Below are positions 4,725 to 38,882 of a DNA stretch of 64,000 bases, piece by piece (positions within the stretch are counted from its first letter, which is position 1; each line of letters begins with the position of its first letter). The position numbers and the translations under genes were made by a program. Source of the DNA: a virus (lineage: Duplodnaviria > Heunggongvirae > Uroviricota > Caudoviricetes). The notes under the pieces are model-generated. The model ran no database searches, was not told where the DNA came from, and was given only the letters and a program-made list of their open reading frames with translations. Where the stretch lies: IMG/VR virus record IMGVR_UViG_3300028797_000098, positions 38,321-102,320 of that record, one strand, 5' to 3'.

Positions 4725-5591
4725 ATGACAATGGATGAATATGTCGCTGCATTGCACGAAATGAGTGTCCGTCTGGATATTCGTTGGTCGAAGGCACGTC
4801 TTGAACAGTATGCAAAGACCAATTACACCAGAAACGTGCTTCTAGTCAAGCCGAGCCTGTATTACACGCTGTTCAGGATGCCATGGCATTTCCTGTGCAC
4901 CCCGTTCAACAGGTTGATGAACTGGATTGGTGACCATATGCCGCTATACGATTATGATAATAGGCCGATGGATGACGGTTACATCCACTTTACTGCGATG
5001 TTGAAAATGGCCGGATTCGTGCCTTTGCAGGATTATGGCTGGCATGTCGTCGATGCCAAGCCGGTGTGCAACATGGAACCGGAACTGTTCAAGAAGTATT
5101 TCCGTTCCCAACGGATGGCAACTAGGATGATGTCAATGAATAGGGCTGAAGAATTCCTGGATGCACTCTATTCTGACTACGTGGAAAAGCATCATATCTA
5201 TGAATTTGGCAAGTACCATAGGTTCACCACGAAGCAAAGGGAAAAGATACTCAATATAATTGCCAAGGCTGATCCTGCAAAGTCTTATATCTCAATCAAT
5301 AATAGTTCGAGCGCTGGTTTCCCAGGTGAAAAATACCGGGCCAATTTTAACATAGATGATACCCGTTATTTGTACATCAGCGTCGCAGGGCCGTTGGCAA
5401 CTCCGGAAGGCGCCCCGAAGGTAATTGTGAAAACTTCGTGGACAAAGATCATTGACGACAACGACGTGTTCAAGCATCAGACATGGTTCAACGGTGACTG
5501 CATCGGGTGGCTCACGAGACGGATGGATGAACTGGAACCGGAGTACAAGAAGGCTCACCCGGAGTTCTCGCCTGGCCATGCGGAAGATTAA
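4725..5591 (+). CDS. hypothetical protein
   Basis: 288-aa ORF that starts immediately after the terminator. Confidence 0.5.
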   Translation: MTMDEYVAALHEMSVRLDIRWSKARLEQYAKTNYTRNVLLVKPSLYYTLFRMPWHFLCTPFNRLMNWIGDHMPLYDYDNRPMDDGYIHFTAMLKMAGFVPLQDYGWHVVDAKPVCNMEPELFKKYFRSQRMATRMMSMNRAEEFLDALYSDYVEKHHIYEFGKYHRFTTKQREKILNIIAKADPAKSYISINNSSSAGFPGEKYRANFNIDDTRYLYISVAGPLATPEGAPKVIVKTSWTKIIDDNDVFKHQTWFNGDCIGWLTRRMDELEPEYKKAHPEFSPGHAED

Positions 5592-5593
5592 AA

Positions 5594-5616
5594 ATGATGT
5601 AAATTTCTTTTTACAT
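5594..5616 (+). terminator. hairpin terminator
   Basis: ATGTAAA-tttcttt-TTACAT followed by AAAAAG. Confidence 0.4.
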
Positions 5617-5871
5617 AAAAAGTTTCAAAAAAGCCTTGAAAATCCATCATTTTTATTCTACTATTGCTATAAACAATATGACGAATAGCCAATTTGGGCG
5701 CGAATGTGTTCAAATAAGCTATGAAAGAGAATTTACTATGAAACAACAACTGTCACACTTAGATTATCGCACGATGAGTTTTGCATTGGCAGAACGTAAT
5801 CTCGGTTGCGCCAAGAAAATGGGACAGTTGCACTGGTAAAAATTCCTTATAAAAGGTTAGGTTGATAAGGA

Positions 5872-5905
5872 ACCAGGTTGCAACAAAAGAGCAACCTGGT
5901 TTTTT
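5872..5905 (+). terminator. strong rho-independent terminator before the tRNA array
   Basis: ACCAGGTTGC-aacaaaagag-CAACCTGGT (10-bp stem) followed by TTTTTT. Confidence 0.7.
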
Positions 5906-5920
5906 AATTACCTACCATTT

Positions 5921-5995
5921 GGGTTTGTAGCTCAGTTTTGGCAGAGCGCCTGCCCTGCAAGCAGGAGGTCGCGGATTCGAATTCCGCCAGATCCA
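5921..5995 (+). tRNA. tRNA-Ala(TGC)
   Basis: Cloverleaf read by eye. G3:U70 present. Anticodon loop ccTGCaa. T-loop TTCGAAT. No encoded CCA. Confidence 0.7.
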
Positions 5996-6053
5996 CTAAC
6001 GCTTGGCTCGTGAAGCCTCGCAGCAGATTGACATTTCGGATGACTTTTATTAT

Positions 6054-6129
6054 GGGCCATTAGCTCAGTTTTGGTAGAGCGCCTGCATGGCATGCAGGAG
6101 GTCATCGGTTCGAGTCCGATATCGGTCCA
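6054..6129 (+). tRNA. tRNA-Ala(GGC)
   Basis: Anticodon loop atGGCat. G3:U70 only if one nt bulges in the 3' acceptor strand. Confidence 0.55.
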
Positions 6130-6138
6130 GTACACTAT

Positions 6139-6214
6139 GGGTCATTAGCTCAGTTTTGGTAGAGCACTTCGTTCGCATCGAAGAGGTCGTCGGTTCGAGC
6201 CCGACATCGATCCA
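6139..6214 (+). tRNA. tRNA-Ala(CGC)
   Basis: Anticodon loop ttCGCat. Same 3'-acceptor bulge as the previous tRNA. Confidence 0.55.
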
Positions 6215-6218
6215 CTAT

Positions 6219-6290
6219 GCTCCATTAGCTTAACTGGAAGAGCACCCGGCTACGAACCGGACGATTGGGATTCGACTTCCTGATGGAGCA
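6219..6290 (+). tRNA. tRNA-Arg(ACG)
   Basis: Perfect acceptor GCTCCAT/ATGGAGC. Anticodon loop ctACGaa. Confidence 0.65.
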
Positions 6291-6299
6291 CTACTTTAT

Positions 6300-6373
6300 G
6301 GGACCTTAGAATACGCTGGCTAGTTCATCGCCCTTTCACGGCGGGGAACCGGGATCGACACCCGGAGGTCCTA
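6300..6373 (+). tRNA. tRNA-Glu(TTC)
   Basis: Anticodon arm CGCCCTTTCACGGCGG identical to E. coli tRNA-Glu. Anticodon loop ctTTCac. Confidence 0.7.
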
Positions 6374-6445
6374 CTAAATGGATTTTGGAGCAGTATCCAT
6401 CCGGCTTTGCCGGGAAGCAACCTAGGTTGCATCGTGCTCCACCAT

Positions 6446-6519
6446 CCTCATCTATATCAATTGGTTAGATAGCTACTCTGATAAGGTAGAGGTTCCTGAT
6501 TCGAGCTCAGGGGTGAGGA
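6446..6519 (+). tRNA. tRNA-Ile(GAT)
   Basis: Acceptor CCTCATC/GGTGAGG. Anticodon loop ctGATaa. T-loop TTCGAGC. Confidence 0.65.
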
Positions 6520-6523
6520 CTAT

Positions 6524-6596
6524 GGGTCTGTAGCTTAAGAGGAAGAGCGTCCGGTTTGCACCCGGTTGGTATGGTTTCGAGCACCATCAGTATCCA
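6524..6596 (+). tRNA. tRNA-Ala(TGC), second copy
   Basis: Anticodon loop ttTGCac. G3:U70 with a 1-nt bulge in the 3' acceptor strand. Confidence 0.5.
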
Positions 6597-6613
6597 CGAT
6601 TTTAATTCTATAT

Positions 6614-6686
6614 GCACCATTAGCTCAGTTGGTAGAGCAGTTGCCTCTTAAGCATCGGGTCCAAGGTCCGAGTCCTTGATGGTGCA
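6614..6686 (+). tRNA. tRNA-Lys(CTT)
   Basis: Perfect acceptor GCACCAT/ATGGTGC. Anticodon loop ctCTTaa. Confidence 0.65.
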
Positions 6687-6698
6687 CGAAGAAATTAT

Positions 6699-6773
6699 TG
6701 CGGTGTAGCTCAGTCCGGTCAGAGCAGCGGAATCATAATCCGTTGGTCGAAGGTTCAAATCCTTCTTCCGCAA
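6699..6773 (+). tRNA. tRNA-Met or Ile2 (CAT)
   Basis: U1:A72. Anticodon loop atCATaa. T-loop TTCAAAT. Confidence 0.6.
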
Positions 6774-6886
6774 CGATGCAGCCCGGCAGTTAAAGAATGC
6801 CGGTCCCGACAAAGATAAGGTCGGTCGGTATAAAGCGCCGAAACAACATAAGAACCTAAAGCACCGGGGGCTGCGTTAAACATTTT

Positions 6887-6960
6887 GGGGGCGTGGTGAA
6901 GAGGCTCAACACAGCGGTCTGTCTAACCGCCATTCGCGGGTTCGAACCCCGCCGCTCTCG
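6887..6960 (+). tRNA. tRNA-Asp(GTC)
   Basis: Anticodon arm GCGGT-ctGTCta-ACCGC. Acceptor with two G:U pairs. T-loop TTCGAAC. Confidence 0.55.
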
Positions 6961-6964
6961 TTAT

Positions 6965-7039
6965 ACTCGGTTAGCTCAGTTGGTCCAGAGCGGCTGCCTT
7001 ACAAGCAGCGGGTCAGCGGTTCGACTCCGTTATCGAGTA
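6965..7039 (+). tRNA. tRNA-Val(TAC)
   Basis: Anticodon loop ctTACaa. D-loop agttggtcca. Confidence 0.65.
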
Positions 7040-7048
7040 CGAAATTAT

Positions 7049-7120
7049 AGGGATTTAGGACAGTGGCTAGTCTAGCGCTCTCCAAAAGCGTCTACGGGAG
7101 TTCGAGTCTCTCAGTCCCTG
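7049..7120 (+). tRNA. tRNA-Trp(CCA)
   Basis: Anticodon loop ctCCAaa. T-loop TTCGAGT. Confidence 0.65.
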
Positions 7121-7132
7121 CGAAATTTTTAT

Positions 7133-7215
7133 GGGTGTGCCGAAGAGTTGGAGATCTTCTTCGGTCTGTAAAACCGACGGCTACGCCTTTGATGGTCCGA
7201 ATCCATCCACACCCA
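7133..7215 (+). tRNA. tRNA-Tyr(GTA), class II
   Basis: Perfect acceptor GGGTGTG/CACACCC. Anticodon loop ctGTAaa. 13-nt variable arm. Confidence 0.7.
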
Positions 7216-7226
7216 CTATTCTTTAT

Positions 7227-7299
7227 TCCACCTTAGCTCAGTAGGTAGAGCGGGCGACTGTTAATCGCCTGGTCCCACGTTCGAGTCGTGGAGGTGGAG
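7227..7299 (+). tRNA. tRNA-Asn(GTT)
   Basis: Acceptor TCCACCT/AGGTGGA. Anticodon loop ctGTTaa. Confidence 0.7.
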
Positions 7300-7306
7300 C
7301 TAATAT

Positions 7307-7382
7307 TGCCGATTAGCCAAGCGGTAAGGCGCCGCGCTCTGAACGCGGGATTCTTTCGGTGGTTCGATCCCATCATCGGCAA
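7307..7382 (+). tRNA. tRNA-Gln(CTG)
   Basis: U1:A72. Anticodon loop ctCTGaa. Unusually long 9-nt variable region. Confidence 0.5.
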
Positions 7383-7393
7383 CTAAATTTTAT

Positions 7394-7464
7394 GCACCTA
7401 TGTTGTAGTGGTAGCAAACGACCTTGCCATGGTTGAAGCTCCGGATCGTACCCGGATAGGTGCT
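7394..7464 (+). tRNA. tRNA-Gly(GCC)
   Basis: Perfect acceptor GCACCTA/TAGGTGC. Anticodon loop ttGCCat. Confidence 0.7.
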
Positions 7465-7468
7465 CTAT

Positions 7469-7553
7469 CTCGTCGTGGGGGAATTTGGTAGACCCGCCAG
7501 CTTGAGGGGTTGGTGTTGAAATACACGTGGTGGTTCGAGACCACTCGACGAGA
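7469..7553 (+). tRNA. tRNA-Leu(GAG), class II
   Basis: Anticodon loop ttGAGgg. Long variable arm. Confidence 0.6.
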
Positions 7554-7566
7554 CTAACTTTAACAA

Positions 7567-7651
7567 CGCCCAGTGATGGAATTGGGTAGACAATGCGGAC
7601 TTAAAATCCGCAGCGAGTATTCGCGTGCCGGTTCGATGCCGGTCTGGGCGA
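7567..7651 (+). tRNA. tRNA-Leu(TAA), class II
   Basis: Perfect acceptor CGCCCAG/CTGGGCG. Anticodon loop ctTAAaa. Variable-arm stem GCGA/TCGC. Confidence 0.6.
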
Positions 7652-7725
7652 CTACAAGGGACAATGAATATGAAACGAAAATACAAACGATTATGATGGT
7701 GACGACTGCCAATTCAGTCGTGTCG

Positions 7726-7798
7726 GCTCCATTAACTCAGAAGATAGAGTACCGCCCTTTTAAGGCGGGAGTCGAGATGGCGGAATTCTCATGGAGCA
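7726..7798 (+). tRNA. tRNA-Lys(TTT)
   Basis: Perfect acceptor GCTCCAT/ATGGAGC. Anticodon loop ctTTTaa. Non-canonical T-loop GGCGGAA. Confidence 0.5.
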
Positions 7799-7805
7799 CT
7801 ATAAT

Positions 7806-7876
7806 GCACCTATGGTGTAGCGGTAACACGGCAGTCTTCCAAACTGCACTCGCCAGTTCGATTCTGACTAGGTGCT
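7806..7876 (+). tRNA. tRNA-Gly(TCC)
   Basis: Same acceptor as tRNA-Gly(GCC). Anticodon loop ctTCCaa. Confidence 0.65.
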
Positions 7877-7885
7877 TTATTATAC

Positions 7886-7967
7886 CGATCTGTGGCGGAA
7901 AGCATACGCAACGCACTCAAAATGCGTCGTCCGAAAGGAATTGTGGGTTCGTGTCCCACCAGATCGA
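7886..7967 (+). tRNA. tRNA-Leu(CAA), class II
   Basis: Perfect acceptor CGATCTG/CAGATCG. Anticodon loop ctCAAaa. Long variable arm. Confidence 0.6.
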
Positions 7968-7971
7968 CTAT

Positions 7972-8056
7972 CGGCATGTGGCGTAACTGGTAGCCGCGCT
8001 GCGTTCAGGGCGCAGTGTACATTTGTACGTGATGGGTTCGAATCCCTCTGTGCCGA
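7972..8056 (+). tRNA. tRNA-Leu(CAG), class II
   Basis: Anticodon loop ttCAGgg. Variable-arm hairpin GTACA/TGTAC. Weak T-stem. Confidence 0.5.
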
Positions 8057-8061
8057 CTTAT

Positions 8062-8133
8062 GGCCCCTTAGACCAGCGGTTAAGTCACAGGATTCTCATT
8101 CCTGGCACCCGAGTTCGAGCCTCGGAGGGGCTA
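8062..8133 (+). tRNA. tRNA-Glu(CTC)
   Basis: Anticodon loop ttCTCat. T-arm CCGAG-TTCGAGC-CTCGG. Confidence 0.6.
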
Positions 8134-8137
8134 CTAT

Positions 8138-8210
8138 TGGGCCGTGGTGCAATTGGTAGCACGCAAGATTTTGAGTCTTGATGTTGTTGGTTCAAGTCCA
8201 GCCAGCTCAA
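8138..8210 (+). tRNA. tRNA-Gln(TTG)
   Basis: U1:A72. Anticodon arm CAAGA-ttTTGag-TCTTG. Confidence 0.6.
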
Positions 8211-8213
8211 TTC

Positions 8214-8296
8214 CCCGAGGTGGCGGAATGGTAGACGCGCCTGCCTTAGGAGCAGGTGCCCGGAAGGGCGTGCAGGTTCGAGTCCTGTCCTCGGGA
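8214..8296 (+). tRNA. tRNA-Leu(TAG), class II
   Basis: Perfect acceptor CCCGAGG/CCTCGGG. Anticodon loop ctTAGga. Long variable arm. Confidence 0.6.
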
Positions 8297-8305
8297 TAAT
8301 GATAT

Positions 8306-8380
8306 GCGCTCTTAGCCAAGCCTGGTCTAAGGCAAGTGGTTGCAACCCACTGATCGGCGGTCCGAATCCGTCAGAGCGCT
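8306..8380 (+). tRNA. tRNA-Cys(GCA)
   Basis: Perfect acceptor GCGCTCT/AGAGCGC. Anticodon loop ttGCAac. Confidence 0.65.
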
Positions 8381-8394
8381 CGAAAGATTTTTAT

Positions 8395-8467
8395 GGGGCT
8401 GTAGCTCAGTTGGTAGAGCGGCAGGTTGAAGCCCTGCGCGTCGGAGGTTCGACTCCTCCCGGTCCCA
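8395..8467 (+). tRNA. tRNA-Phe(GAA)
   Basis: Canonical GTAGCTCAGTTGGTAGAGC D-arm. Anticodon loop ttGAAgc. Confidence 0.7.
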
Positions 8468-8473
8468 CTATTT

Positions 8474-8561
8474 GGAAATGTCCCATAATTGGTTATTGGC
8501 CCTCCTTGGAAAGGAGCGTGGTGGTGAAAGCTGCATGAAGGTTCGAGTCCTCCCATTTCCG
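8474..8561 (+). tRNA. tRNA-Ser(GGA), class II
   Basis: Perfect acceptor GGAAATG/CATTTCC. Anticodon loop ttGGAaa. Long variable arm. Confidence 0.55.
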
Positions 8562-8568
8562 CGAATTT

Positions 8569-8655
8569 GGAAGCGTAGACCTAATTGGTAAGGCCCCCGG
8601 CCCGAACCCGGTGGTGAGGAAGTTCCTCATGTAGGTTCAAGTCCTGCCGCTTCCG
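8569..8655 (+). tRNA. tRNA-Ser(CGA), class II
   Basis: Perfect acceptor GGAAGCG/CGCTTCC. Long variable arm. Anticodon reading CGA is tentative. Confidence 0.45.
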
Positions 8656-8659
8656 CTAT

Positions 8660-8743
8660 GGAAGCGCACGAGATTGGCGACTCAAGCGGACTTGAAATCC
8701 GTGGTTCCGCAAGGGCTTGGGGGTTCGACTCCCTCCGCTTCCG
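8660..8743 (+). tRNA. tRNA-Ser(TGA), class II
   Basis: Same acceptor as the previous tRNA. Anticodon loop ctTGAaa as in E. coli tRNA-Ser. Confidence 0.55.
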
Positions 8744-8752
8744 CGAAAGTAT

Positions 8753-8825
8753 TCCGACATAGCTCAATTGGTAGAGCAGTTCATTCGTAATGAACCGGTT
8801 GCTCGTTCGACCCGAGCTGTCGGAG
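8753..8825 (+). tRNA. tRNA-Thr(CGT)
   Basis: Perfect acceptor TCCGACA/TGTCGGA. Anticodon loop ttCGTaa. Confidence 0.65.
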
Positions 8826-8829
8826 CTAT

Positions 8830-8918
8830 GGAGAGGTAGCCTAATTGGTAAGGCAGGGGCTTGCTAAGCCCCCGTGGCCCTCAAAAGCTGCTTGCAGGTT
8901 CGAACCCTGTCCTCTCCT
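8830..8918 (+). tRNA. tRNA-Ser(GCT), class II
   Basis: Perfect acceptor GGAGAGG/CCTCTCC. Anticodon loop ttGCTaa. Long variable arm. Confidence 0.55.
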
Positions 8919-8924
8919 CTACAT

Positions 8925-8998
8925 GGTGTCAGTAGCTCAATCGGTGGAGCCCTGGTTTGTGGAACCAGCTGTTGCAAGTTCAAGCCTTGTCTGATACC
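8925..8998 (+). tRNA. tRNA-His(GTG) with encoded G-1
   Basis: Extra 5' G opposite discriminator C. Anticodon loop ttGTGga. Confidence 0.65.
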
Positions 8999-9046
8999 CT
9001 AAGTCATCTGAAATGTCGCGGATTTATTCAAGCAAAAGGATACAAC

Positions 9047-9376
9047 ATGATTACGGTAGCACAGATCAACGAATTGCGCAAGGCGACCCAGGTGAGCATG
9101 CTTCTATGTAAGCAGGCCCTGGAAGCGACCGGTGGCGATTTCGATGCCGCCAAGGAATGGCTCAGGGGCCAGGGCGGCGAGGTCGCCGGTGGCCCTTCCG
9201 AGTTCGGCGTCACCCTTTTCGCCGATGGCGCCGTCAATCAGCATGGTGTCACCGATGTCTTCACCTATTCCGACGGACATTCCACCGTGGACATCCGCGG
9301 TTATAGCGGTACGACCCCTTCTACCGTATGGGCCGATTTCAGGCACCAGCTCGTATTGAGACCGGCCAAGGCCTAG
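9047..9376 (+). CDS. EF-Ts N-terminal (UBA-like) domain protein
   Basis: AAAGGA SD then ATG. MITVAQINELRKATQVSMLLCKQALEATGGDFDAAKEWLRGQG resembles the EF-Tu-binding N-terminus of EF-Ts. The remainder is unrelated. Confidence 0.5.
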   Translation: MITVAQINELRKATQVSMLLCKQALEATGGDFDAAKEWLRGQGGEVAGGPSEFGVTLFADGAVNQHGVTDVFTYSDGHSTVDIRGYSGTTPSTVWADFRHQLVLRPAKA

Positions 9377-9383
9377 TCTTTCA

Positions 9384-9459
9384 GCCGGCGTAGCTCAATG
9401 GACTTCAGAGCACTCGACTTCTAATCGACAGGTTGCCAGTTCGACCCTGGCCGTCGGCA
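9384..9459 (+). tRNA. tRNA-Arg(TCT)
   Basis: Anticodon loop ctTCTaa. T-arm GCCAG-TTCGACC-CTGGC. Followed by TTTTTT. Confidence 0.6.
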
Positions 9460-9505
9460 TTTTTTGTTCATATTTTGTGAATATCTGTTGCCAACATGTG
9501 AAAAT

Positions 9506-9518
9506 ATTGCTATATATT
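9506..9518 (+). promoter_or_regulatory. TTTGCTAYATTT-family promoter element
   Basis: ATTGCTATATATT 40 nt upstream of the 9558 ATG. Confidence 0.4.
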
Positions 9519-9557
9519 CGATAACAAAAACATTAACATCTAACAAAGGATTGAAAA

Positions 9558-9788
9558 ATGAAGAAGAACGCTGTTGCTTCCGCCACGAAGACTGTTGCAG
9601 ACAAGGAATCTCAGGCAACTATCAAGAAGCTCACTGCTGAAAATGCAAAGCTCACGAAGTCCCTCAAGTCCGCTGTCGCCAAGGCTGACAAGGCTGCTTC
9701 CGCATCTGCCGCTAAGCTTGCAAAGGCTAACGACAAGATTGCAAAGTTGCAGGAAACTGTCGCAGCTCTCAAGGGCAAGAAGAAGTAA
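9558..9788 (+). CDS. small Lys/Ala-rich coiled-coil (histone-H1-like) protein
   Basis: AAAGGATTGAAAA then ATG. 76 aa, about 45% Ala+Lys. Confidence 0.5.
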   Translation: MKKNAVASATKTVADKESQATIKKLTAENAKLTKSLKSAVAKADKAASASAAKLAKANDKIAKLQETVAALKGKKK

Positions 9789-9828
9789 TTCAAACCACAT
9801 ACCCTCCTTTGTGGTAGGCAACCGGCAT

Positions 9829-9862
9829 CATGAGGGCCGGTTGTCATTTTTTATTCGTATTG
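9829..9862 (+). terminator. rho-independent terminator
   Basis: CAACCGGC-atcatgaggg-CCGGTTG followed by TCATTTTTT. Confidence 0.6.
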
Positions 9863-9870
9863 CTATATTC
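9859..9870 (+). promoter_or_regulatory. promoter element ATTGCTATATTC
   Basis: Ends 5 nt before the ATG at 9876. Confidence 0.45.
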
Positions 9871-9875
9871 GGTGT

Positions 9876-10547
9876 ATGGAACAAGGAACAAGACTTTACA
9901 TCAATATTACCAACCGCTGCAATACGGACTGCCCGTTTTGCTGCATGTACTCCGGAACGGGAAATACTATCGACATGGATTTCGATGTGTTCCGTCGCAT
10001 CATAAATGAATGCCATGGCGACTTCGAGATTCAGTTTGAGGGCGGTGAACCCTTGATCCACAAGAATTTCTACCTATTCCTCGAATATGCCATCTCGACT
10101 GGCCGTTGCAAGAAGGTGAATATCCTGACGAACGGCATCGTGCTCGGGAAACACCTGCCTCGCCTGGTAAGTGTGTACAAGTGGTATGACATTCCCTTTG
10201 AAATCAAGGTATCGGTGAACTACTGGCTTATCAGGAAGCATGAAAACCATATCAAGCTGATTGCCGACTATGTGTTCGCCACCGAATACATGCCGAACTT
10301 CAATATTGTCCTGAATACCCGCAAGCGGCATAACGATGAGTGGATTGACGAGGAAATCAAGAATGCCGGGATGGAGGCCATTAACCACTCATTTTACCTT
10401 CAGAGTTATGGTAAGATGACTGGAAGCGACTATGATGGGGTGAAGATTGTCCAGAACATTGAAAACTGGCAGATTTACTCTGTAGATGGGCTGTGTTTCC
10501 ATCAGGACCTGGTTGCCCGTTCCGAACATGAGAGGAATCTATCGTGA
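9876..10547 (+). CDS. radical SAM protein, paralog 1 (MoaA/PqqE-like core)
   Basis: CNTDCPFCC CxxxCxxC motif, FEGGEPLIH, ILTNG. Confidence 0.7.
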   Translation: MEQGTRLYINITNRCNTDCPFCCMYSGTGNTIDMDFDVFRRIINECHGDFEIQFEGGEPLIHKNFYLFLEYAISTGRCKKVNILTNGIVLGKHLPRLVSVYKWYDIPFEIKVSVNYWLIRKHENHIKLIADYVFATEYMPNFNIVLNTRKRHNDEWIDEEIKNAGMEAINHSFYLQSYGKMTGSDYDGVKIVQNIENWQIYSVDGLCFHQDLVARSEHERNLS

Positions 10548-11506
10548 ATACCATCAAGTTTGCTCCATACAATGACTTCGTGACCGAACAGCACGATGTC
10601 GAGCATGCCTCGGTGGACACCGTTAAGGTGGGTGAAACTGAGTACAGGTTCTACAACCCCTGCAACCTGAACGTGTTCATCACGAATACGTGTCAGAACG
10701 CATGCGACTTCTGCATCAACAAGGGGCAGACGGACCAGTTCCGCATGGGTGACACTACATATTACGAGGACTTGGAGAAGGGTCTGGAAAAGCTGTCCGG
10801 TGTGAAGCTGGAAGCGACCATCACAGGCGGGGAACCTACTCTTCTCCCGAGACGCCTGGTCGAGACAGTTCGTATCCTGACCAAGCACGGGGTGCATGAA
10901 CGCACCGTGTCTACCACAGGCATCGGACTCCTTGAAAAGTACGAGGGGAAGACCGTCTTCCAGCACCTAATCGAGAATGGGTACACCCACAATATCTCGA
11001 TTAGCCGCATGGCCGAGGACGAATGGGAGAATGACCGCATCATGATGGGCGAGAAGTATTCGTCCAGGCAGCGTAACATTGGAAACGACGAGCTTAGGCG
11101 CCTCGCGACCATCGCCAAGGCGAATGGGGTTCAGTTACGCACCAGTACCAATTTACTTGCCGGACATGTTGATTCGTTCAAGAAGATGCTTCAATTTGTC
11201 GATTTTCAGTATGGTAATGGTATCGAAAGCTGTCTGTTCCGTGAGCTCGAAGGAAAGATACAGAAAATGTGGACGCCGATTGACTGGATTGCCGATACCG
11301 TGCGTATCATTAAGGATTTTAAATATGTCAAGACGGTGAACGGCATGTTCTATGACATAGAACAGTATCTGTACACTTCGCAGGCAACTGGGATGGAGTA
11401 CATTGTCAAGGTTTACAAGAACCATGTGGTCGATGCCGACATCATTGGTTCGCTTTCATTTAATCACGGTGTCATCCGAAAAGGATTTCATGGAGAAGAA
11501 ATATGA
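10544..11506 (+). CDS. radical SAM protein, paralog 2
   Basis: CQNACDFC, ITGGEPTLL, TTGIG. ATGA overlap with the upstream gene. Confidence 0.7.
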   Translation: MNTIKFAPYNDFVTEQHDVEHASVDTVKVGETEYRFYNPCNLNVFITNTCQNACDFCINKGQTDQFRMGDTTYYEDLEKGLEKLSGVKLEATITGGEPTLLPRRLVETVRILTKHGVHERTVSTTGIGLLEKYEGKTVFQHLIENGYTHNISISRMAEDEWENDRIMMGEKYSSRQRNIGNDELRRLATIAKANGVQLRTSTNLLAGHVDSFKKMLQFVDFQYGNGIESCLFRELEGKIQKMWTPIDWIADTVRIIKDFKYVKTVNGMFYDIEQYLYTSQATGMEYIVKVYKNHVVDADIIGSLSFNHGVIRKGFHGEEI

Positions 11507-13416: not shown

Positions 13417-14181
13417 ATGAATAAAAATAATCCAGTAAAACTGTCCGATATCAAGGAATTCTTGCCTGAAGGCCCGGTGTTGTTCAATCCGCCCAAGACG
13501 ATGTATGTTTGGGATGATGACGATGCGAATGACCCTGAAACAAGTGCACCTTACCTTGCTGAGGTGTTATACGTAAATCCTTCTCTGGGTGTTAAGCGTG
13601 TGTTTGCTCGCGGGAATGGAATGGCTGCGCAGAATGCAGGCGCCACCTGGGACCACTGCGCCGAAACTACCGGTACGGGACGGCTATTTGCACTGGCATA
13701 CATTGATGGCACATTGGGTTCTAGTGAGCAGCTGGACCACCATGTGATCAAGATATTTAATGATGACGATGTGAAGATTAACCCGTCTGCCGGATTGGCA
13801 ACTTATCGTGAGCTATCCGAATGGCTTTCAAAAGGCAAGGGACAGGTTTTAATGGCCCGTCAAGACGATGCGATTATTCCGCCAACAATTACCAATACGC
13901 TTGCGTATCCGAATCATTTGGATGAAAAACCAGTGCCTTATTCATTGACTGCGGGTACCGGTGAAATGTATTACAAGATTAGGCGATACGACGATACCGA
14001 ATTTGTTGATCCGCTTCGTAAGAACCTGGAAGAACCGTCTTGCAAGGCTGTACTTGATTCTGCAGTTGAAGTGCCGGAATCGGTTAAGCATAATCTTGGA
14101 CTGCAACCCGGGCAATGTTGTCATCATTTAGCCAGTACTCCCGATTGGTCAACTGTTGTAGATGAGGGTAATCATGGATAA
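13417..14181 (+). CDS. hypothetical protein
   Basis: 254-aa ORF directly after a promoter element. Confidence 0.5.
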   Translation: MNKNNPVKLSDIKEFLPEGPVLFNPPKTMYVWDDDDANDPETSAPYLAEVLYVNPSLGVKRVFARGNGMAAQNAGATWDHCAETTGTGRLFALAYIDGTLGSSEQLDHHVIKIFNDDDVKINPSAGLATYRELSEWLSKGKGQVLMARQDDAIIPPTITNTLAYPNHLDEKPVPYSLTAGTGEMYYKIRRYDDTEFVDPLRKNLEEPSCKAVLDSAVEVPESVKHNLGLQPGQCCHHLASTPDWSTVVDEGNHG

Positions 14182-14929
14182 GGAAGAAGAAAAGAAGAAA
14201 ATCGATGACTTGTTTGCTCCTCATGACTTAGACCTTGAAGGATTTTCCGATGCAGTAAAGGCGAGATTCGAAGAAGCGACCTGCCGTACCGATAACCAGA
14301 ATGAGTACATGCTTTTCCCCGATGGGTGTGAATTGGGCATGATTGGAACTATGGTGAACGAACATGGTATTGAAGTTCCGGTCTATGAACGTGGGCTGTC
14401 AATCAGGTCAAAAATGAAAAGCTATGGCCCTGATTGGGCGAAAGAGATGGGTGTATATACCGAAGAGCAGCTTTCTGACCCCGAATACATGGAAACTGAG
14501 CTGTTTGCCGCTGCCGAGGAAGATTTTGAATATAATACCGTCAGGTCCCTCCCATATCAGCATGAGCATGCCCCGGTAATCATGGAAGTCCTGCATGACA
14601 TCGATGAGCGCGGCGATTCTAGTCGCTGGGATATGCCAATCGTTGGTAAATTGGACAAGCGTTGGGACAGTGCGTTCATTGGGACGATTGAAAATTCTGA
14701 TTATGCTCCCGTTGCAGTATATGAATTTGGACTGTTAGTCAAGGCCATGATGAGCGAAAACGACGTAGATGCTGATTTCGGCAAGGAACTTACGAAAAAG
14801 TATATTGCCGAAGGTATTCACGGCGACAAGCCCGTCATCCTTTACGGTTTCAAGGTAGATGCCGACCGTTGGGATGCTCTCAGGAAGGACATAAACGACG
14901 AAATGATGGAGGCTTTCTTCAATGCCTAG
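14174..14929 (+). CDS. hypothetical acidic protein
   Basis: Asp/Glu-rich ORF. Start may be 14162 or 14174. Confidence 0.45.
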   Translation: MDKEEEKKKIDDLFAPHDLDLEGFSDAVKARFEEATCRTDNQNEYMLFPDGCELGMIGTMVNEHGIEVPVYERGLSIRSKMKSYGPDWAKEMGVYTEEQLSDPEYMETELFAAAEEDFEYNTVRSLPYQHEHAPVIMEVLHDIDERGDSSRWDMPIVGKLDKRWDSAFIGTIENSDYAPVAVYEFGLLVKAMMSENDVDADFGKELTKKYIAEGIHGDKPVILYGFKVDADRWDALRKDINDEMMEAFFNA

Positions 14930-15500
14930 ATACGATAAGCCGGAATACGAGGGAGATTCCCGTCCGGAAACCCAGAAGCATATTGACCTAGTGAATGAAA
15001 ATGGCAAGAAGTTCTGTGACAAGTTCCTTGAACGTCTTAAGAATCACGATGCCTCCAAGCTAGTGGAGCCTGAACATAAATATTTTGACAAGGGCACCCC
15101 TAATTTGAAGACTAGTACCTATGGCGAAAAGTCTTATGACGATGCCAAGTCGAAGATAAAGCCGGGCCTTGACCATCACTATGCCGAGAATGATCATCAC
15201 CCCGAGCATTTTGGGGAGCAGGGCATATCTGGAATGAATCTGTACCAGTTGCTTGAGATGTGGATTGACTGGACAGCGGCTGTGAAGCGTCATGCCGACG
15301 GCAATATCTTCAATAGCCTTATGTACAACAAGGACAGGCCGGAATTCCACATGGATGACCAGGTGTTCAACATCCTGATGAATACTGCCACCGAGGATTT
15401 TCCGGAGCAGATGGATTCCGCGAATGAAAAATTCCAGAATTACATCAACGGAATGTTGAAAGAGGGTGACGATGTGGGAACTGATACTGGAGATAATTGA
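14922..15500 (+). CDS. hypothetical protein
   Basis: 192-aa ORF. ATGCCTAG overlap with the upstream gene. Confidence 0.45.
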   Translation: MPRYDKPEYEGDSRPETQKHIDLVNENGKKFCDKFLERLKNHDASKLVEPEHKYFDKGTPNLKTSTYGEKSYDDAKSKIKPGLDHHYAENDHHPEHFGEQGISGMNLYQLLEMWIDWTAAVKRHADGNIFNSLMYNKDRPEFHMDDQVFNILMNTATEDFPEQMDSANEKFQNYINGMLKEGDDVGTDTGDN

Positions 15501-17526: not shown

Positions 17527-18762
17527 ATGAAGATTGAAGAAAAGTACATTTCCGAGACAGTCAAGAAGGGTATCGGCTTGCTCGCCGAAATCCATAAGCG
17601 CGGGCACGAGGCATACATTGCCGGTGGCGCCGTGCGCGACCTCGTAATTCGCCAGTTGCACATGGTGTCGGGTTCCGAAAATGAAGTTCCCGTGCATGAC
17701 GTGGACATCGCGACCAACATGCCCATCGAGGACCTGAAACTTGCCTTCCGCTGCGACTCCAATAACGGGGAAGCGCATGGCACGATCCTGGTCCATTATG
17801 ATGGCCTGGTGTTTGAGGTGACCCAGTTCCGCGTCGATGGCAACTATTCCGACGGTCGCCACCCGGATTCGGTGAATTTCACCAAGTCCTTCAAGGAAGA
17901 CTGCGCCCGGCGTGACTTTACCATTAACGCTATGGGTCTGGACAAGGACCTCAATGTCATCGACTATTTCGGCGGTATTGACGACCTGGTATTCCGTCGT
18001 CTCCGTGCAGTGGGCAACCCGTATGACCGCATGACCGAGGATTCCCTCCGTATCATTCGCGGTATGCGATTTGCCGCCCGTTTCGGTTTCGTGATTGACG
18101 ACCTTACCAAGTTGGCCATGCGCAGCCGCCTGCACCACATCAAGAGCGTGGCGATGGAGCGCATCCATGACGAATTGCACAAGTGTGCCGAGTATGGCGT
18201 GCTGCCTTTCGTGAACATGATTGGGTACCTGTCCGAGTATGGCATCGGATCAATTTTCCAGGATGTCGGCTTCTGCTTTGACCGTCAGCGCATGCTCGTG
18301 GAATCCTTGGTACGCGGAAACGTGGATGCCGATACAATCATGTCGGTATTCATCTGCATGCTGCCGAAGAAGTCCATGGAATGGCTCCGCTGCACCCGTA
18401 AGGAAATCCGCATGGCCGAGCGCATCAGGGATGGCCTGATTGGCATCATGTCCGGAAAGTTCGGTCTTGCCGATGAGCAGTTGCTCTATTCCGTTGAACT
18501 GGCCGCTTCCCCGGAATTCAGGCTCATTACCAACCTGTACCGCGAACTGAACCCGTATGGTACCGCCCTGGGTGATGGTGCGGCGACGATATGCGATGTC
18601 ATTGCGCGTTGCAGGAAGGGCGTACCCGAATACGGAAAGCAGGTTGCCGCGGAAGGTATCCAGGAAGGACCGGAATTTGGCAAGCGCCTGCGGGAAGTCA
18701 TCCTCGCCGACTACAAGAGAATCAAGGATGAGTGGGACAAATCAATGAACAGGATGTGGTAA
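17527..18762 (+). CDS. cca: tRNA nucleotidyltransferase (CCA-adding enzyme)
   Basis: Class II head domain GGAVRDLVI...DVDIAT, then RIIRGMRFAARFGF. Confidence 0.75.
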   Translation: MKIEEKYISETVKKGIGLLAEIHKRGHEAYIAGGAVRDLVIRQLHMVSGSENEVPVHDVDIATNMPIEDLKLAFRCDSNNGEAHGTILVHYDGLVFEVTQFRVDGNYSDGRHPDSVNFTKSFKEDCARRDFTINAMGLDKDLNVIDYFGGIDDLVFRRLRAVGNPYDRMTEDSLRIIRGMRFAARFGFVIDDLTKLAMRSRLHHIKSVAMERIHDELHKCAEYGVLPFVNMIGYLSEYGIGSIFQDVGFCFDRQRMLVESLVRGNVDADTIMSVFICMLPKKSMEWLRCTRKEIRMAERIRDGLIGIMSGKFGLADEQLLYSVELAASPEFRLITNLYRELNPYGTALGDGAATICDVIARCRKGVPEYGKQVAAEGIQEGPEFGKRLREVILADYKRIKDEWDKSMNRMW

Positions 18763-32408: not shown

Positions 32409-32437
32409 AATTTAGGAAAATCCTCCGATATGGCTGG

Positions 32438-32455
32438 AAATTTGCTATATTCGGG
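32438..32455 (+). promoter_or_regulatory. promoter element AAATTTGCTATATTCGGG
   Basis: Followed by a non-coding structured region and then tRNA-Gly(CCC). Confidence 0.45.
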
Positions 32456-32708
32456 ATAACAGTCGTCCGTTCTGCCACAAGAATCAGTGGAGTGTCGCTT
32501 GGGGTCATGACCAGGCAGCCGATGAGCGGTCCTGAATCATCAGTAAATGGTTCTGTGCCCATGCAGATATCATGCGGCGGGGGATGCCTTTCCCCTTTCT
32601 GGAAATTCGCTCCCATAAGGAAGAAATTAGGCACCCTTCCCCTGGGGTAAAAGGGGAAACGGTTGGACCACCCGTTACCGTGACGTGATTTACCACGGAG
32701 GCCCACCA

Positions 32709-32781
32709 TGCGGGAGTAGCTCAGGTGGTAGAGCGAGGCATTCCCATTGCCTAGGTCGCGAGTTCGAATCTCGTCTCCCGC
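32709..32781 (+). tRNA. tRNA-Gly(CCC)
   Basis: Perfect acceptor GCGGGAG/CTCCCGC. Anticodon loop ttCCCat. T-loop TTCGAAT. Confidence 0.7.
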
Positions 32782-38300: not shown

Positions 38301-38882
38301 ATGAGAAGACTTTTTATAATCAGGAAGGACTTGAACCTTCATGCCGGCAAGCTTGCCGCCATGGTTGGCCACTGTGCTGAATGTTACTGGCTAAACGTAT
38401 TTAAGCATATGAGTGTCGTCAAGGACAACGAATACGATATACTGCCAGTAGAAACCCCGGACGACCCCGATTATTGGATGTTGTATCGTCATCCTGGTGT
38501 ATATGCTGCGGCGAAAGCTGCTCATGAACGGGGTGAGAAAACCTTCCAATACAAGGCGGAAAACTCCCGTCCTACGAAGACGATTGCGTTTGAAATCCCG
38601 AAAGAAATCTGGGATGGTTACATCAATGATATCTTCACGAAGACAATCTGTGAGGCAAAGAACCTTAACCATCTAATGAAGGTGGAAGAGGTCGCCAAGG
38701 AACTTGGTCTTGTCCCGCTCATTGACTATGGGTATATCGACGATGTTTGCAAGACCGACCTGACACCGGAATTTACCGACGCGGATGGTGTGGGCCGGTG
38801 CCGCGTTGGCATCTGGTTCAAGCCACTCCCGGATGAAATTAGCCGTAAGTTGAGCAAGAAGTATCAACTGTATAAGGATTAG
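38301..38882 (+). CDS. hypothetical protein
   Basis: 193-aa ORF. Confidence 0.45.
   Translation: MRRLFIIRKDLNLHAGKLAAMVGHCAECYWLNVFKHMSVVKDNEYDILPVETPDDPDYWMLYRHPGVYAAAKAAHERGEKTFQYKAENSRPTKTIAFEIPKEIWDGYINDIFTKTICEAKNLNHLMKVEEVAKELGLVPLIDYGYIDDVCKTDLTPEFTDADGVGRCRVGIWFKPLPDEISRKLSKKYQLYKD

Follow-up and report, generated by a model that had tools for sequence, protein, structure and literature searches.

A stem-closed, CCA-ended element in the tRNA array of a gut jumbo phage: a possible gene for an anticodon-less tRNA-like RNA

Which kind of gene takes the place of a tRNA in a phage tRNA array and ends in a genome-encoded ACCA, but is not itself a tRNA? The question is raised by 71 nt (6375-6445) between tRNA-Glu and tRNA-Ile in a 64,000-nt stretch of viral DNA, in the following called the window, which corresponds to positions 38,321 to 102,320 of the IMG/VR record IMGVR_UViG_3300028797_000098. 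An initial annotation, made from the letters alone, had described a compact two-hairpin element there, and its sequence and its position between the two tRNAs (called by ARAGORN and Rfam, see Table 1) are as described. Three options had been offered, namely a minimal tRNA-like decoy, a processing or terminator structure, and a small regulatory RNA; the 'minimal tRNA-like' part fits best among them, and the terminator part fails. In our opinion the chances are about even that the element encodes a small tRNA-like RNA without an anticodon, which would be excised by tRNA-processing enzymes and would mimic the acceptor end of a tRNA.

Fold and class of the element

The folded core of the element (6387-6444, ~58 nt) adopts a three-way junction as its minimum-energy fold: a terminal stem P1 (GGAGCA/UGCUCC) encloses two hairpins, P2 and P3, and is followed by A-CCA (Table 1). 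Its minimum free energy (MFE) of -27.5 kcal/mol compares with -17.75 +/- 2.84 kcal/mol in 200 dinucleotide shuffles (z = -3.43), none of which was as stable, and by the same test the array spacer 5997-6053 is unstructured (z = +0.9). The closing stem of the initial annotation was recovered with its six Watson-Crick pairs, to which a G·G mismatch has to be added at the seventh position; the first of its two tight hairpins, CCGGC-UUU-GCCGG, stands as drawn, whereas the second consists of five pairs and a CUAG tetraloop instead of six pairs and a 2-nt loop, because a loop of 2 nt is impossible. The fold of the antisense strand is about as stable (z = -3.3), since the hairpins are palindromic, and the orientation of the array argues for the + strand. 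The leader preceding P1 could pair either with the junction J1/2 (AUGGAU/AUCCAU, which would form a pseudoknot) or with the CCA end (UGG/CCA); both arrangements are possible, and there is no informative variation among the homologs for either.

Table 1. Parts of the element and its two neighbouring genes, in window positions; designations beginning with L refer to loci of other phages
Feature	Positions	Strand	Remarks
tRNA-Glu(UUC)	6300..6374	+	upstream neighbour at every element-bearing locus; ARAGORN; Rfam tRNA 40.2 bits at 6300-6373
Leader UAAAUGGAUUUU	6375..6386	+	identical in four lineages; largely kept in L021 (AAAUGG..AUUU)
P1 5' strand GGAGCAG	6387..6393	+	acceptor positions 1-7; all other lineages have G for A6389, giving G3·U70
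J1/2 UAUCCAU	6394..6400	+	single-stranded junction, invariant; 7/7 same in window type and L021
P2 hairpin CCGGC-UUU-GCCGG	6401..6413	+	size varies; L021 has a branched hairpin of 45 nt instead
J2/3 GAA	6414..6416	+	invariant; 3/3 same in L021
P3 hairpin GCAAC-CUAG-GUUGC (GCAACCUAGGUUGC)	6417..6430	+	5 bp and tetraloop; stem covaries, loop unconserved
J3/1 AUC	6431..6433	+	AAA in L021
P1 3' strand GUGCUCC	6434..6440	+	acceptor positions 66-72; invariant
Discriminator A and genome-encoded CCA	6441..6444	+	kept in all five sequences
Single U between CCA and tRNA-Ile +1	6445	+	could, as read from the sequence, pair with A73 of tRNA-Ile
tRNA-Ile(GAU)	6446..6520	+	downstream neighbour in window-type lineages; ARAGORN; Rfam 53 bits

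The element is not a tRNA, not a tmRNA and not a member of any Rfam family. ARAGORN called no tRNA on it in bacterial, pseudogene or mitochondrial mode, the last of which allows arm-less tRNAs and in the same run recovered two odd tRNAs elsewhere. The 71 nt alone gave no match to the Rfam tRNA clan even at E <= 10, where the flanking tRNAs score 40-53 bits in the same scan; among all Rfam 15 families nothing was found at E <= 1 in 5000-10500, and the scan of the element by itself at E <= 10 gave noise only. What it has in common with a tRNA is the seven-position acceptor stem GGAGCAG/GUGCUCC with A6441 and CCA at 6442-6444, conserved in five sequences. There is no 7-nt anticodon loop on a 5-bp stem (the loop of P2 has 3 nt, UUU, and that of P3 4 nt, CUAG), and both a TΨC-type 7-nt T-loop and a D arm are missing, in agreement with the initial annotation, which had seen no D- or T-loop signatures. 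The tmRNA families (RF00023, RF01849-51, RF02544) gave no match at E <= 10, ARAGORN called no tmRNA in the window, and the element possesses neither a T arm with a T-loop nor an analogue of the D-loop (GGAUUCGAC / GGUUUCGAC).

Further candidates were rejected. An intrinsic terminator, as suggested initially, finds neither a U-tract nor a terminator-like site at 6375-6445, where P3 is followed by AUCGUGCUCC; no promoter was called at this site either. A terminator-like hairpin does lie immediately upstream of the array (5868-5905, AACCAGGUUGC...GCAACCUGGUU followed by a U-run), and it has GCAACCU/AGGUUGC in common with P3, which is probably a coincidence. The end of a repeat or mobile element (REP, MITE, IS200/IS605 PATE) was discarded because the element is single-copy in the window and in each locus, and two covariance models found no paralogs in the window or the loci. 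A presumed second copy upstream of tRNA-Gly(CCC) (32543-32709) has the termini UAAAUGG...CCACCAU in common with the element, but shows no stable fold (z = -0.3) and no model match, and these termini are largely the usual trailer and leader motifs of the array. That region belongs to 300 non-coding nt (32409-32709) preceding the lone tRNA-Gly(CCC), with UAAAUGG at 32545, GGCCCACCAU at the end before +1 and no Rfam match.

Homologs and their pattern of change

Relatives of the locus were reached via homologs of the upstream 288-aa protein in a large protein database and by one metagenome DNA scan; two IMG/VR scans with flanking proteins returned none. Three lineages (L008, L014, L015) keep the block of tRNA-Glu, 71 nt and tRNA-Ile, with differences at 2-3 of the 71 nt of the element and at 0-2 positions of the flanking tRNAs, where the upstream non-coding 330 nt are only ~85% identical and the neighbouring 288-aa protein is 70% (L008 and L015) or 65% (L014) identical. 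Two of the substitutions are found in all three: A6389 to G turns A3-U70 into G3·U70, and A6420 to G turns an A-U pair of P3 into G·U.

A far more divergent form was reached through a Zn-ribbon protein encoded beside the block in L008 and L015. It resides in L021, a contig of 235 kb that shares 63% identity with the window in its DNA ligase, and reads, directly after tRNA-Glu(UUC), UACAAAUGGGAUUUGGGGGCCUUAUCCAU[45-nt hairpin]GAAGCAGGGACGCCUGCAAAGUGCUCCACCA, followed immediately by +1 of a tRNA-Phe-like gene. The 3' strand with its tail, GUGCUCCACCA, is identical at 11/11 positions in all five sequences, while P2 grows from 13 to 45 nt in L021 and P3, unchanged in length, differs in two pairs (GCAGG-GACG-CCUGC): one is inverted from C-G to G-C, the other runs A-U / G·U / G-C across the lineages, and the hairpin loops (CUAG in the window type, GACG in L021) are unconserved. 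The MFE fold of L021 by itself shows the same layout of P1, P2 and P3, and RNAalifold agrees. A second RNA model (R2), built from five sequences including L021, scores L021 with 62 bits (E = 1.6e-15), a match by construction, L021 being a training sequence. Conservation in related tRNA arrays, which the initial annotation had proposed to look for, was thus found in L008, L014 and L015 as well as in the distant L021, with one three-helix layout throughout. Free loops and a free size of P2, compensation in P3, and invariant junctions and 3' strand make up a pattern typical of, and expected for, a structured RNA, and judged by these alignments the element is a conserved unit, not a loose spacer.

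The same comparison bears on two readings that require no RNA. Were the palindromes a DNA-level element, they could serve as the site of a dimeric protein, as the target of a homing endonuclease or of recombination, or as an IS200/IS605-type end; in the window, GCAACCTAGGTTGC forms a perfect palindrome of 14 bp, the two strands are equal in how well they fold, and these arrays are invaded by mobile genes (HNH, Zn-ribbon protein, TnpB). L008, L014 and L015 have an imperfect version of the palindrome, however, and L021 with GCAGG-GACG-CCTGC, whose loop is not self-complementary, keeps the pairing and loses the symmetry of the sequence; furthermore, the single-copy element belongs to no repeat family in the window or the loci, and conservation falls on its asymmetric junctions and on the strand with the CCA. 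We therefore consider a DNA-level element highly improbable. The other such reading, a 15-codon micro-open reading frame (ATG 6378, stop 6423) with a Shine-Dalgarno-like GGAGG inside the 3' end of tRNA-Glu, has a negligible chance of being correct, even though its ATG lies 8 nt after the GGAGG (6365-6369) and L021 also has an ATG-started frame, of 18 codons. The peptides of the window and L021 forms are alike in the first residues only, the GGAGG is buried in the T and acceptor stems of tRNA-Glu, and the frame in which the invariant UAUCCAU is read differs between these forms, so that its conservation is at the nucleotide level.

The distribution of the element is patchy. It is missing in L009/L011, L012 and L013 (ligase identity 88% in L009 and 77% in L012) and in the IMG/VR relatives L023 and L024; in L012 and L013, 3 nt separate the same tRNA-Glu from a different tRNA-Ile, and in L023 and L024 Ile or Phe comes directly after Glu. 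Five DNA-pattern scans of IMG/VR and two of the GTDB one-per-species genomes gave 0 matches, near and distant searches of INPHARED revealed no homolog, and none of 80 IMG/VR loci encoding the Zn-ribbon family carries the element. The family so far comprises five lineages of uncultivated gut phages. Moreover, the array is a mosaic in comparison with L008, L014 and L015, in which some tRNAs are identical and others of the same anticodon are swapped for ~55-75% identical versions; the Glu-element-Ile block is among the nearly identical blocks, and in such a mosaic of swapped cassettes high identity alone is weak evidence of constraint.

The encoded CCA and the acceptor end

The ACCA tail, already pointed out in the initial annotation, is indeed exceptional. 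Among 231 ARAGORN tRNAs in ten loci of these phages' arrays, a single one encodes N73-CCA, and 169/231 have N73-C followed by T or G; array spacers usually end in AT or TTT before +1. The element shares the grammar of the slot with real tRNAs, that is, a T-rich leader, a seven-position terminal stem and N73-C, which bears out the earlier remark that it sits where a tRNA would be, and the full ACCA is present in both of its divergent forms. In L021 no nucleotide separates the CCA from +1 of the next tRNA, and RNase P cleavage there would therefore leave a mature CCA-OH. This and the other RNase P steps considered below are deduced from general knowledge of the enzyme. U6445, the one nucleotide intervening in the window, may bear on the choice of the RNase P site.

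A role in cis also has to be considered at this point. The element could be a processing or insulator element that works only within the precursor and is then degraded, without acting in trans; the 3' maturation of tRNA-Glu(UUC), an unusual tRNA, could be guided or protected by it, or it could make exonucleases pause or display the downstream tRNA to RNase P. Such a role would agree with its constant place after tRNA-Glu(UUC), while the downstream tRNA varies (Ile in the window type, Phe-like in L021), with a conserved 12-nt leader right after tRNA-Glu that is able to pair with J1/2 or CCA, and with other long, conserved, stem-closed inserts without CCA in the array, for example 6775-6885. The same tRNA-Glu nevertheless stands directly before another tRNA in L012, L013, L023 and L024, so its processing does not need the element, and a spacer role leaves the invariant 11-nt 3' strand and the encoded CCA abutting the next tRNA unexplained. 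We regard a purely cis-acting element as unlikely, if still worth considering.

Two features were overlooked in the initial annotation, the conserved leader of 12 nt and the tRNA-Ala-type acceptor end of the other four lineages. In L008, L014, L015 and L021, P1 comprises G1-C72, G2-C71, G3·U70, G4-C69 and C5-G68 with A73; the window copy has A3-U70, and G3·U70 together with A73 is thus found in 4/5 lineages. At least 10 of the 21 tRNA-Ala in these arrays have G·U at 3:70, as against 8 of 210 other tRNAs, the remaining tRNA-Ala being mostly register errors of the counting script. A gene of an unrelated IMG/VR phage (L059 2474-2549) resembles tRNA-Ala(UGC) but is non-canonical, with an odd T-loop; it encodes its ACCA and is missed by ARAGORN. 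Its acceptor, GGGGCAG-UA...CUGCUCC-ACCA, has a stem identical to that of the element in L014.

An acceptor end of this type could also be what is left of a tRNA-Ala- or tmRNA-type gene that lost its D arm and loops and is kept, non-functional, in an exchanged cassette. Apart from the identity with the L059 gene, P2 contains UUUGC as does the anticodon loop of tRNA-Ala(UGC), the arrays are mosaics of swapped cassettes, relatives dispense with the element, and L020 has in the same Glu-to-Ile slot a 57-nt insert (7798-7854) without CCA, whose closing stem GAGUCGCG/CGUGACUC, resembling a diverged P1, is followed by A-C-UAU. The 3' end of this insert resembles that of the element (CGUG-CUC-AC), and it may be a degenerate relative, although model R2 does not detect it. 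Local alignment of the element to 167 array tRNAs, however, gave a best score of 19 against a mean shuffle maximum of 19.8; in the absence of significant similarity, descent from tRNA-Ala is plausible, not demonstrated. Both hairpins are perfect and the fold is significantly stable, and L021, at 63% ligase identity, keeps architecture, junctions and CCA and compensates in P3, which is unlike the drift of a pseudogene. A decayed remnant seems to us rather improbable, more so than a role in cis.

Possible function, comparable RNAs and the setting in the array

How might an anticodon-less tRNA-like RNA come about and act? P1 with A-CCA reproduces the acceptor end of a tRNA, P3 takes the place of the T arm with a tetraloop only, P2 that of the anticodon arm, free in size and devoid of an anticodon loop, and the D arm is absent; lacking an anticodon, the RNA would most likely serve tRNA-end mimicry and not decoding. 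It would be transcribed within the polycistronic tRNA array and cut out by the enzymes that process the neighbouring tRNAs: its 5' end would be set by the 3' maturation of tRNA-Glu and probably by RNase P 5' of G6387, and the RNase P cut at the 5' end of the downstream tRNA would create a ready-made ...CUCCACCA 3' end, exact in L021 and with one extra U in the window. Such an end would make the element independent of the CCA-adding enzyme that the CCA-less tRNAs of the array need. In the least certain step, the RNA, unable to decode, would show its acceptor end to a factor that reads acceptors and act as mimic, substrate or decoy. Candidate targets are alanyl-tRNA synthetase (AlaRS) in the G3·U70 lineages, the partners of tmRNA, and host enzymes or toxins acting on tRNA 3' ends. 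Excision, stability of the product and the role in trans are what we infer from the observed anatomy, conservation and CCA.

The only equivalent found described in the literature is tmRNA reduced to its tRNA-like domain (TLD). Mycobacteriophage DS6A carries little more than this domain, and a TLD-only molecule is reported to inhibit tmRNA, whether chargeable or not (PMC4131195). TLD-only tmRNAs (DS6A; the mitochondrial tmRNA of jakobids, RF02544) resemble the element in being reduced to a tRNA-Ala-type acceptor end, without anticodon arm and coding part, and in the order of their parts, namely acceptor 5' strand, short linker, variable helix, short hairpin, acceptor 3' strand and ACCA. They differ from the much smaller element (58 nt) in having a T-loop and a GGAUUCGAC-type analogue of the D-loop, both of which are present in the tmRNA of L020. 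A strict TLD-only tmRNA was accordingly rejected: this genuine phage tmRNA contains the GGUUUCGAC motif and a UUCGAAU T-loop, and the element has neither. The L020 gene (13634-13989) encodes a complete tmRNA, whose tag is ADDSMTYSIAA, whose tRNA-like domain is normal and whose A73 is followed by C-TAT; an open reading frame with a faint TROVE (Ro60-like) match (13945-15438) overlaps or adjoins it, beside a 30-gene tRNA array. In view of the reported inhibition by the domain alone, a function as mimic or decoy appears reasonable, and it would tolerate the A3-U70 variant.

Several points weigh against an excised acceptor-end mimic. Processing and stability of its RNA are predictions. The tRNA elbow is normally used by RNase P, EF-Tu, SmpB and CCA-adding enzymes, and P3, having no T-loop, cannot contribute to one, hence the elbow is absent. 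As the leader is able to pair with CCA or J1/2, the 3' end may not be free, or else the leader may belong to the mature RNA. A change to A3-U70 abolishes alanine acceptance, as known from classical work, and alanylation can therefore not be the universal function, since the window copy is devoid of G3·U70. The covariation is not significant (four distinct sequences, one pair changed on both sides, 87/500 shuffles as high), L021 has a C·U in P1, and in L008 only, T6428 to C introduces an A·C mismatch into P3. The element is missing from relatives closer than L021 and is therefore dispensable, and recent cassette exchange could partly account for the high identity of the Glu-element-Ile block.

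A more specific proposal, which we find possible but doubtful, about as much so as a role in cis, is a minimal anticodon-less acceptor RNA of alanine type, its CCA encoded in the genome, that RNase P would release by cutting the downstream tRNA and that would be charged by the host AlaRS or attacked in place of genuine tRNAs, functioning as a decoy or sink for factors of the host acting on tRNA 3' ends; candidate targets would be defence toxins that modify or cleave acceptor ends, and the tmRNA-SmpB rescue pathway. Acceptor minihelices and microhelices of tRNA-Ala are reportedly substrates of AlaRS (Francklyn and Schimmel, 1989, are named for this). G1-C72, G2-C71, G3·U70, G4-C69, C5-G68, A73 and CCA suffice for alanylation of helices without the rest of the tRNA, and this set is present in the elements of L008, L014, L015 and L021. 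In contrast to these synthetic substrates, the element is a natural gene, its window copy has A3-U70, and the likeness is one of sequence.

Other comparisons are looser. The rnaC (species 1) and rnaD (species 2) genes of T4 also encode small, stable non-tRNA RNAs of unassigned function inside a phage tRNA cluster, rnaD being followed by ...GCGCACCA and rnaC having a T-arm-like GGGTTCGAATCCC, but they measure 119-139 nt compared with 58-71 nt and lie at the end of the cluster, not between two tRNAs; homology was rejected, as model R2 finds neither and the genomic context alone is alike. In mascRNA and further small tRNA-like RNAs excised by RNase P and RNase Z, and in the tRNA-like structures (TLS) of plant RNA viruses, mimicry of the acceptor end likewise recruits tRNA enzymes without decoding, although these are eukaryotic or RNA-virus systems with cloverleaf-like folds. 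TLS of the turnip yellow mosaic virus (TYMV) type end in ACCA on a pseudoknotted acceptor stem, and a pseudoknot of leader and J1/2 is sterically possible in the element; no Rfam family matched, the best (Tymo_tRNA-like) reaching 12.5 bits against a threshold of 40 and covering mostly tRNA-Glu. Arm-less mitochondrial tRNAs of nematodes and mites are of similar size (~55 nt) and combine an acceptor stem with reduced arms, but they keep a 7-nt anticodon loop and decode, whereas neither loop of the element can hold an anticodon.

The window stems from a jumbo phage of the gut that is uncultivated. The same phage is present in several metagenome assemblies, a JGI contig of 160 kb and an ENA contig among them, and the tRNA arrays there are identical to that of the window; INPHARED contains no similar cultured phage, and one large window protein has no match there. 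The array (+ strand, 5921-9459) consists of 33 genes, with one further tRNA at 32710 (ARAGORN), and is directly followed by genes for three radical-SAM proteins. Besides an NAD-dependent DNA ligase, the window encodes a CCA-adding-type nucleotidyltransferase (17527-18762), an RlaP-type RNA-repair nucleotidyltransferase, PARG, NAD-salvage enzymes and TnpB, and there is a weak PTH2-like match; this phage invests heavily in tRNA biology. Mobile-looking reading frames lie within the arrays of relatives: L013 has one for an HNH protein, L009 and L021 have TnpB-like genes, and L008, L015 and L019-21 encode a Zn-ribbon protein of 261-271 aa. In the window, a 129-aa reading frame (8987-9376) between tRNA-His and tRNA-Arg matches weakly the N-terminal (UBA-like) domain of elongation factor Ts and is conserved in L014 and L015. 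The 57-nt spacer 5997-6053 after the first tRNA-Ala, nearly identical in L014 and conserved in L009, contains TTGACA and may be a candidate internal promoter, although a consensus scan gave no call there.

Other gaps in these arrays are structured as well. Between tRNA-Arg and tRNA-Phe of L019, 85 nt (10875-10959) of unrelated sequence and element-like design form a three-way junction of -49 kcal/mol with an 11-bp closing stem and two hairpins, and end in U-CCA abutting the next tRNA; further stem-closed, NCCA-ended non-tRNA gaps are found in L046-48 (95 nt), L072 (126 nt) and L035. Phage tRNA arrays may contain a wider class, so far undescribed, of non-tRNA genes that are stem-closed and NCCA-ended, with the element as one example and L019 10875-10959, L046-48 and L072 as other candidate members. 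Between tRNA-Met and tRNA-Asp of the window lies an insert of 111 nt without CCA (6775-6885), closed by GCAGCCC/GGGCUGC (z = -2.8), 95-96% identical in L008, L014 and L015 and without an Rfam match; in its homolog at L019 11034-11144 the closing stem is GUAGCC/GGCUAC, a compensatory change. A 153-nt gap (7653-7805) harbours a tRNA-Lys(UUU) candidate (7725-7798) with the non-canonical T-loop GGCGGAA, found by ARAGORN in mitochondrial mode and missed by its bacterial mode and by Rfam, and L021 contains a tRNA-Phe(GAA) (11063-11136) with a similar T-loop, GGCGGCA; there may be a class of tRNAs with altered T-loops in these phages.

For annotation this is a warning, as genes for structured RNAs and non-canonical tRNAs can lie in the gaps of tRNA arrays and escape the standard finders. 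With its 58 nt, a natural pair of G3·U70 and A3-U70 variants and an arm of variable size, the element offers a compact test system for a minimal natural mimic of tRNA. The tRNA arrays of phages are usually read as a codon supply or as sets of anti-defence tRNAs; if the element is what we propose, phages would also exploit the non-decoding face of tRNA, the one that is presented to RNase P, synthetases, CCA enzymes, rescue factors and tRNA-targeting toxins.

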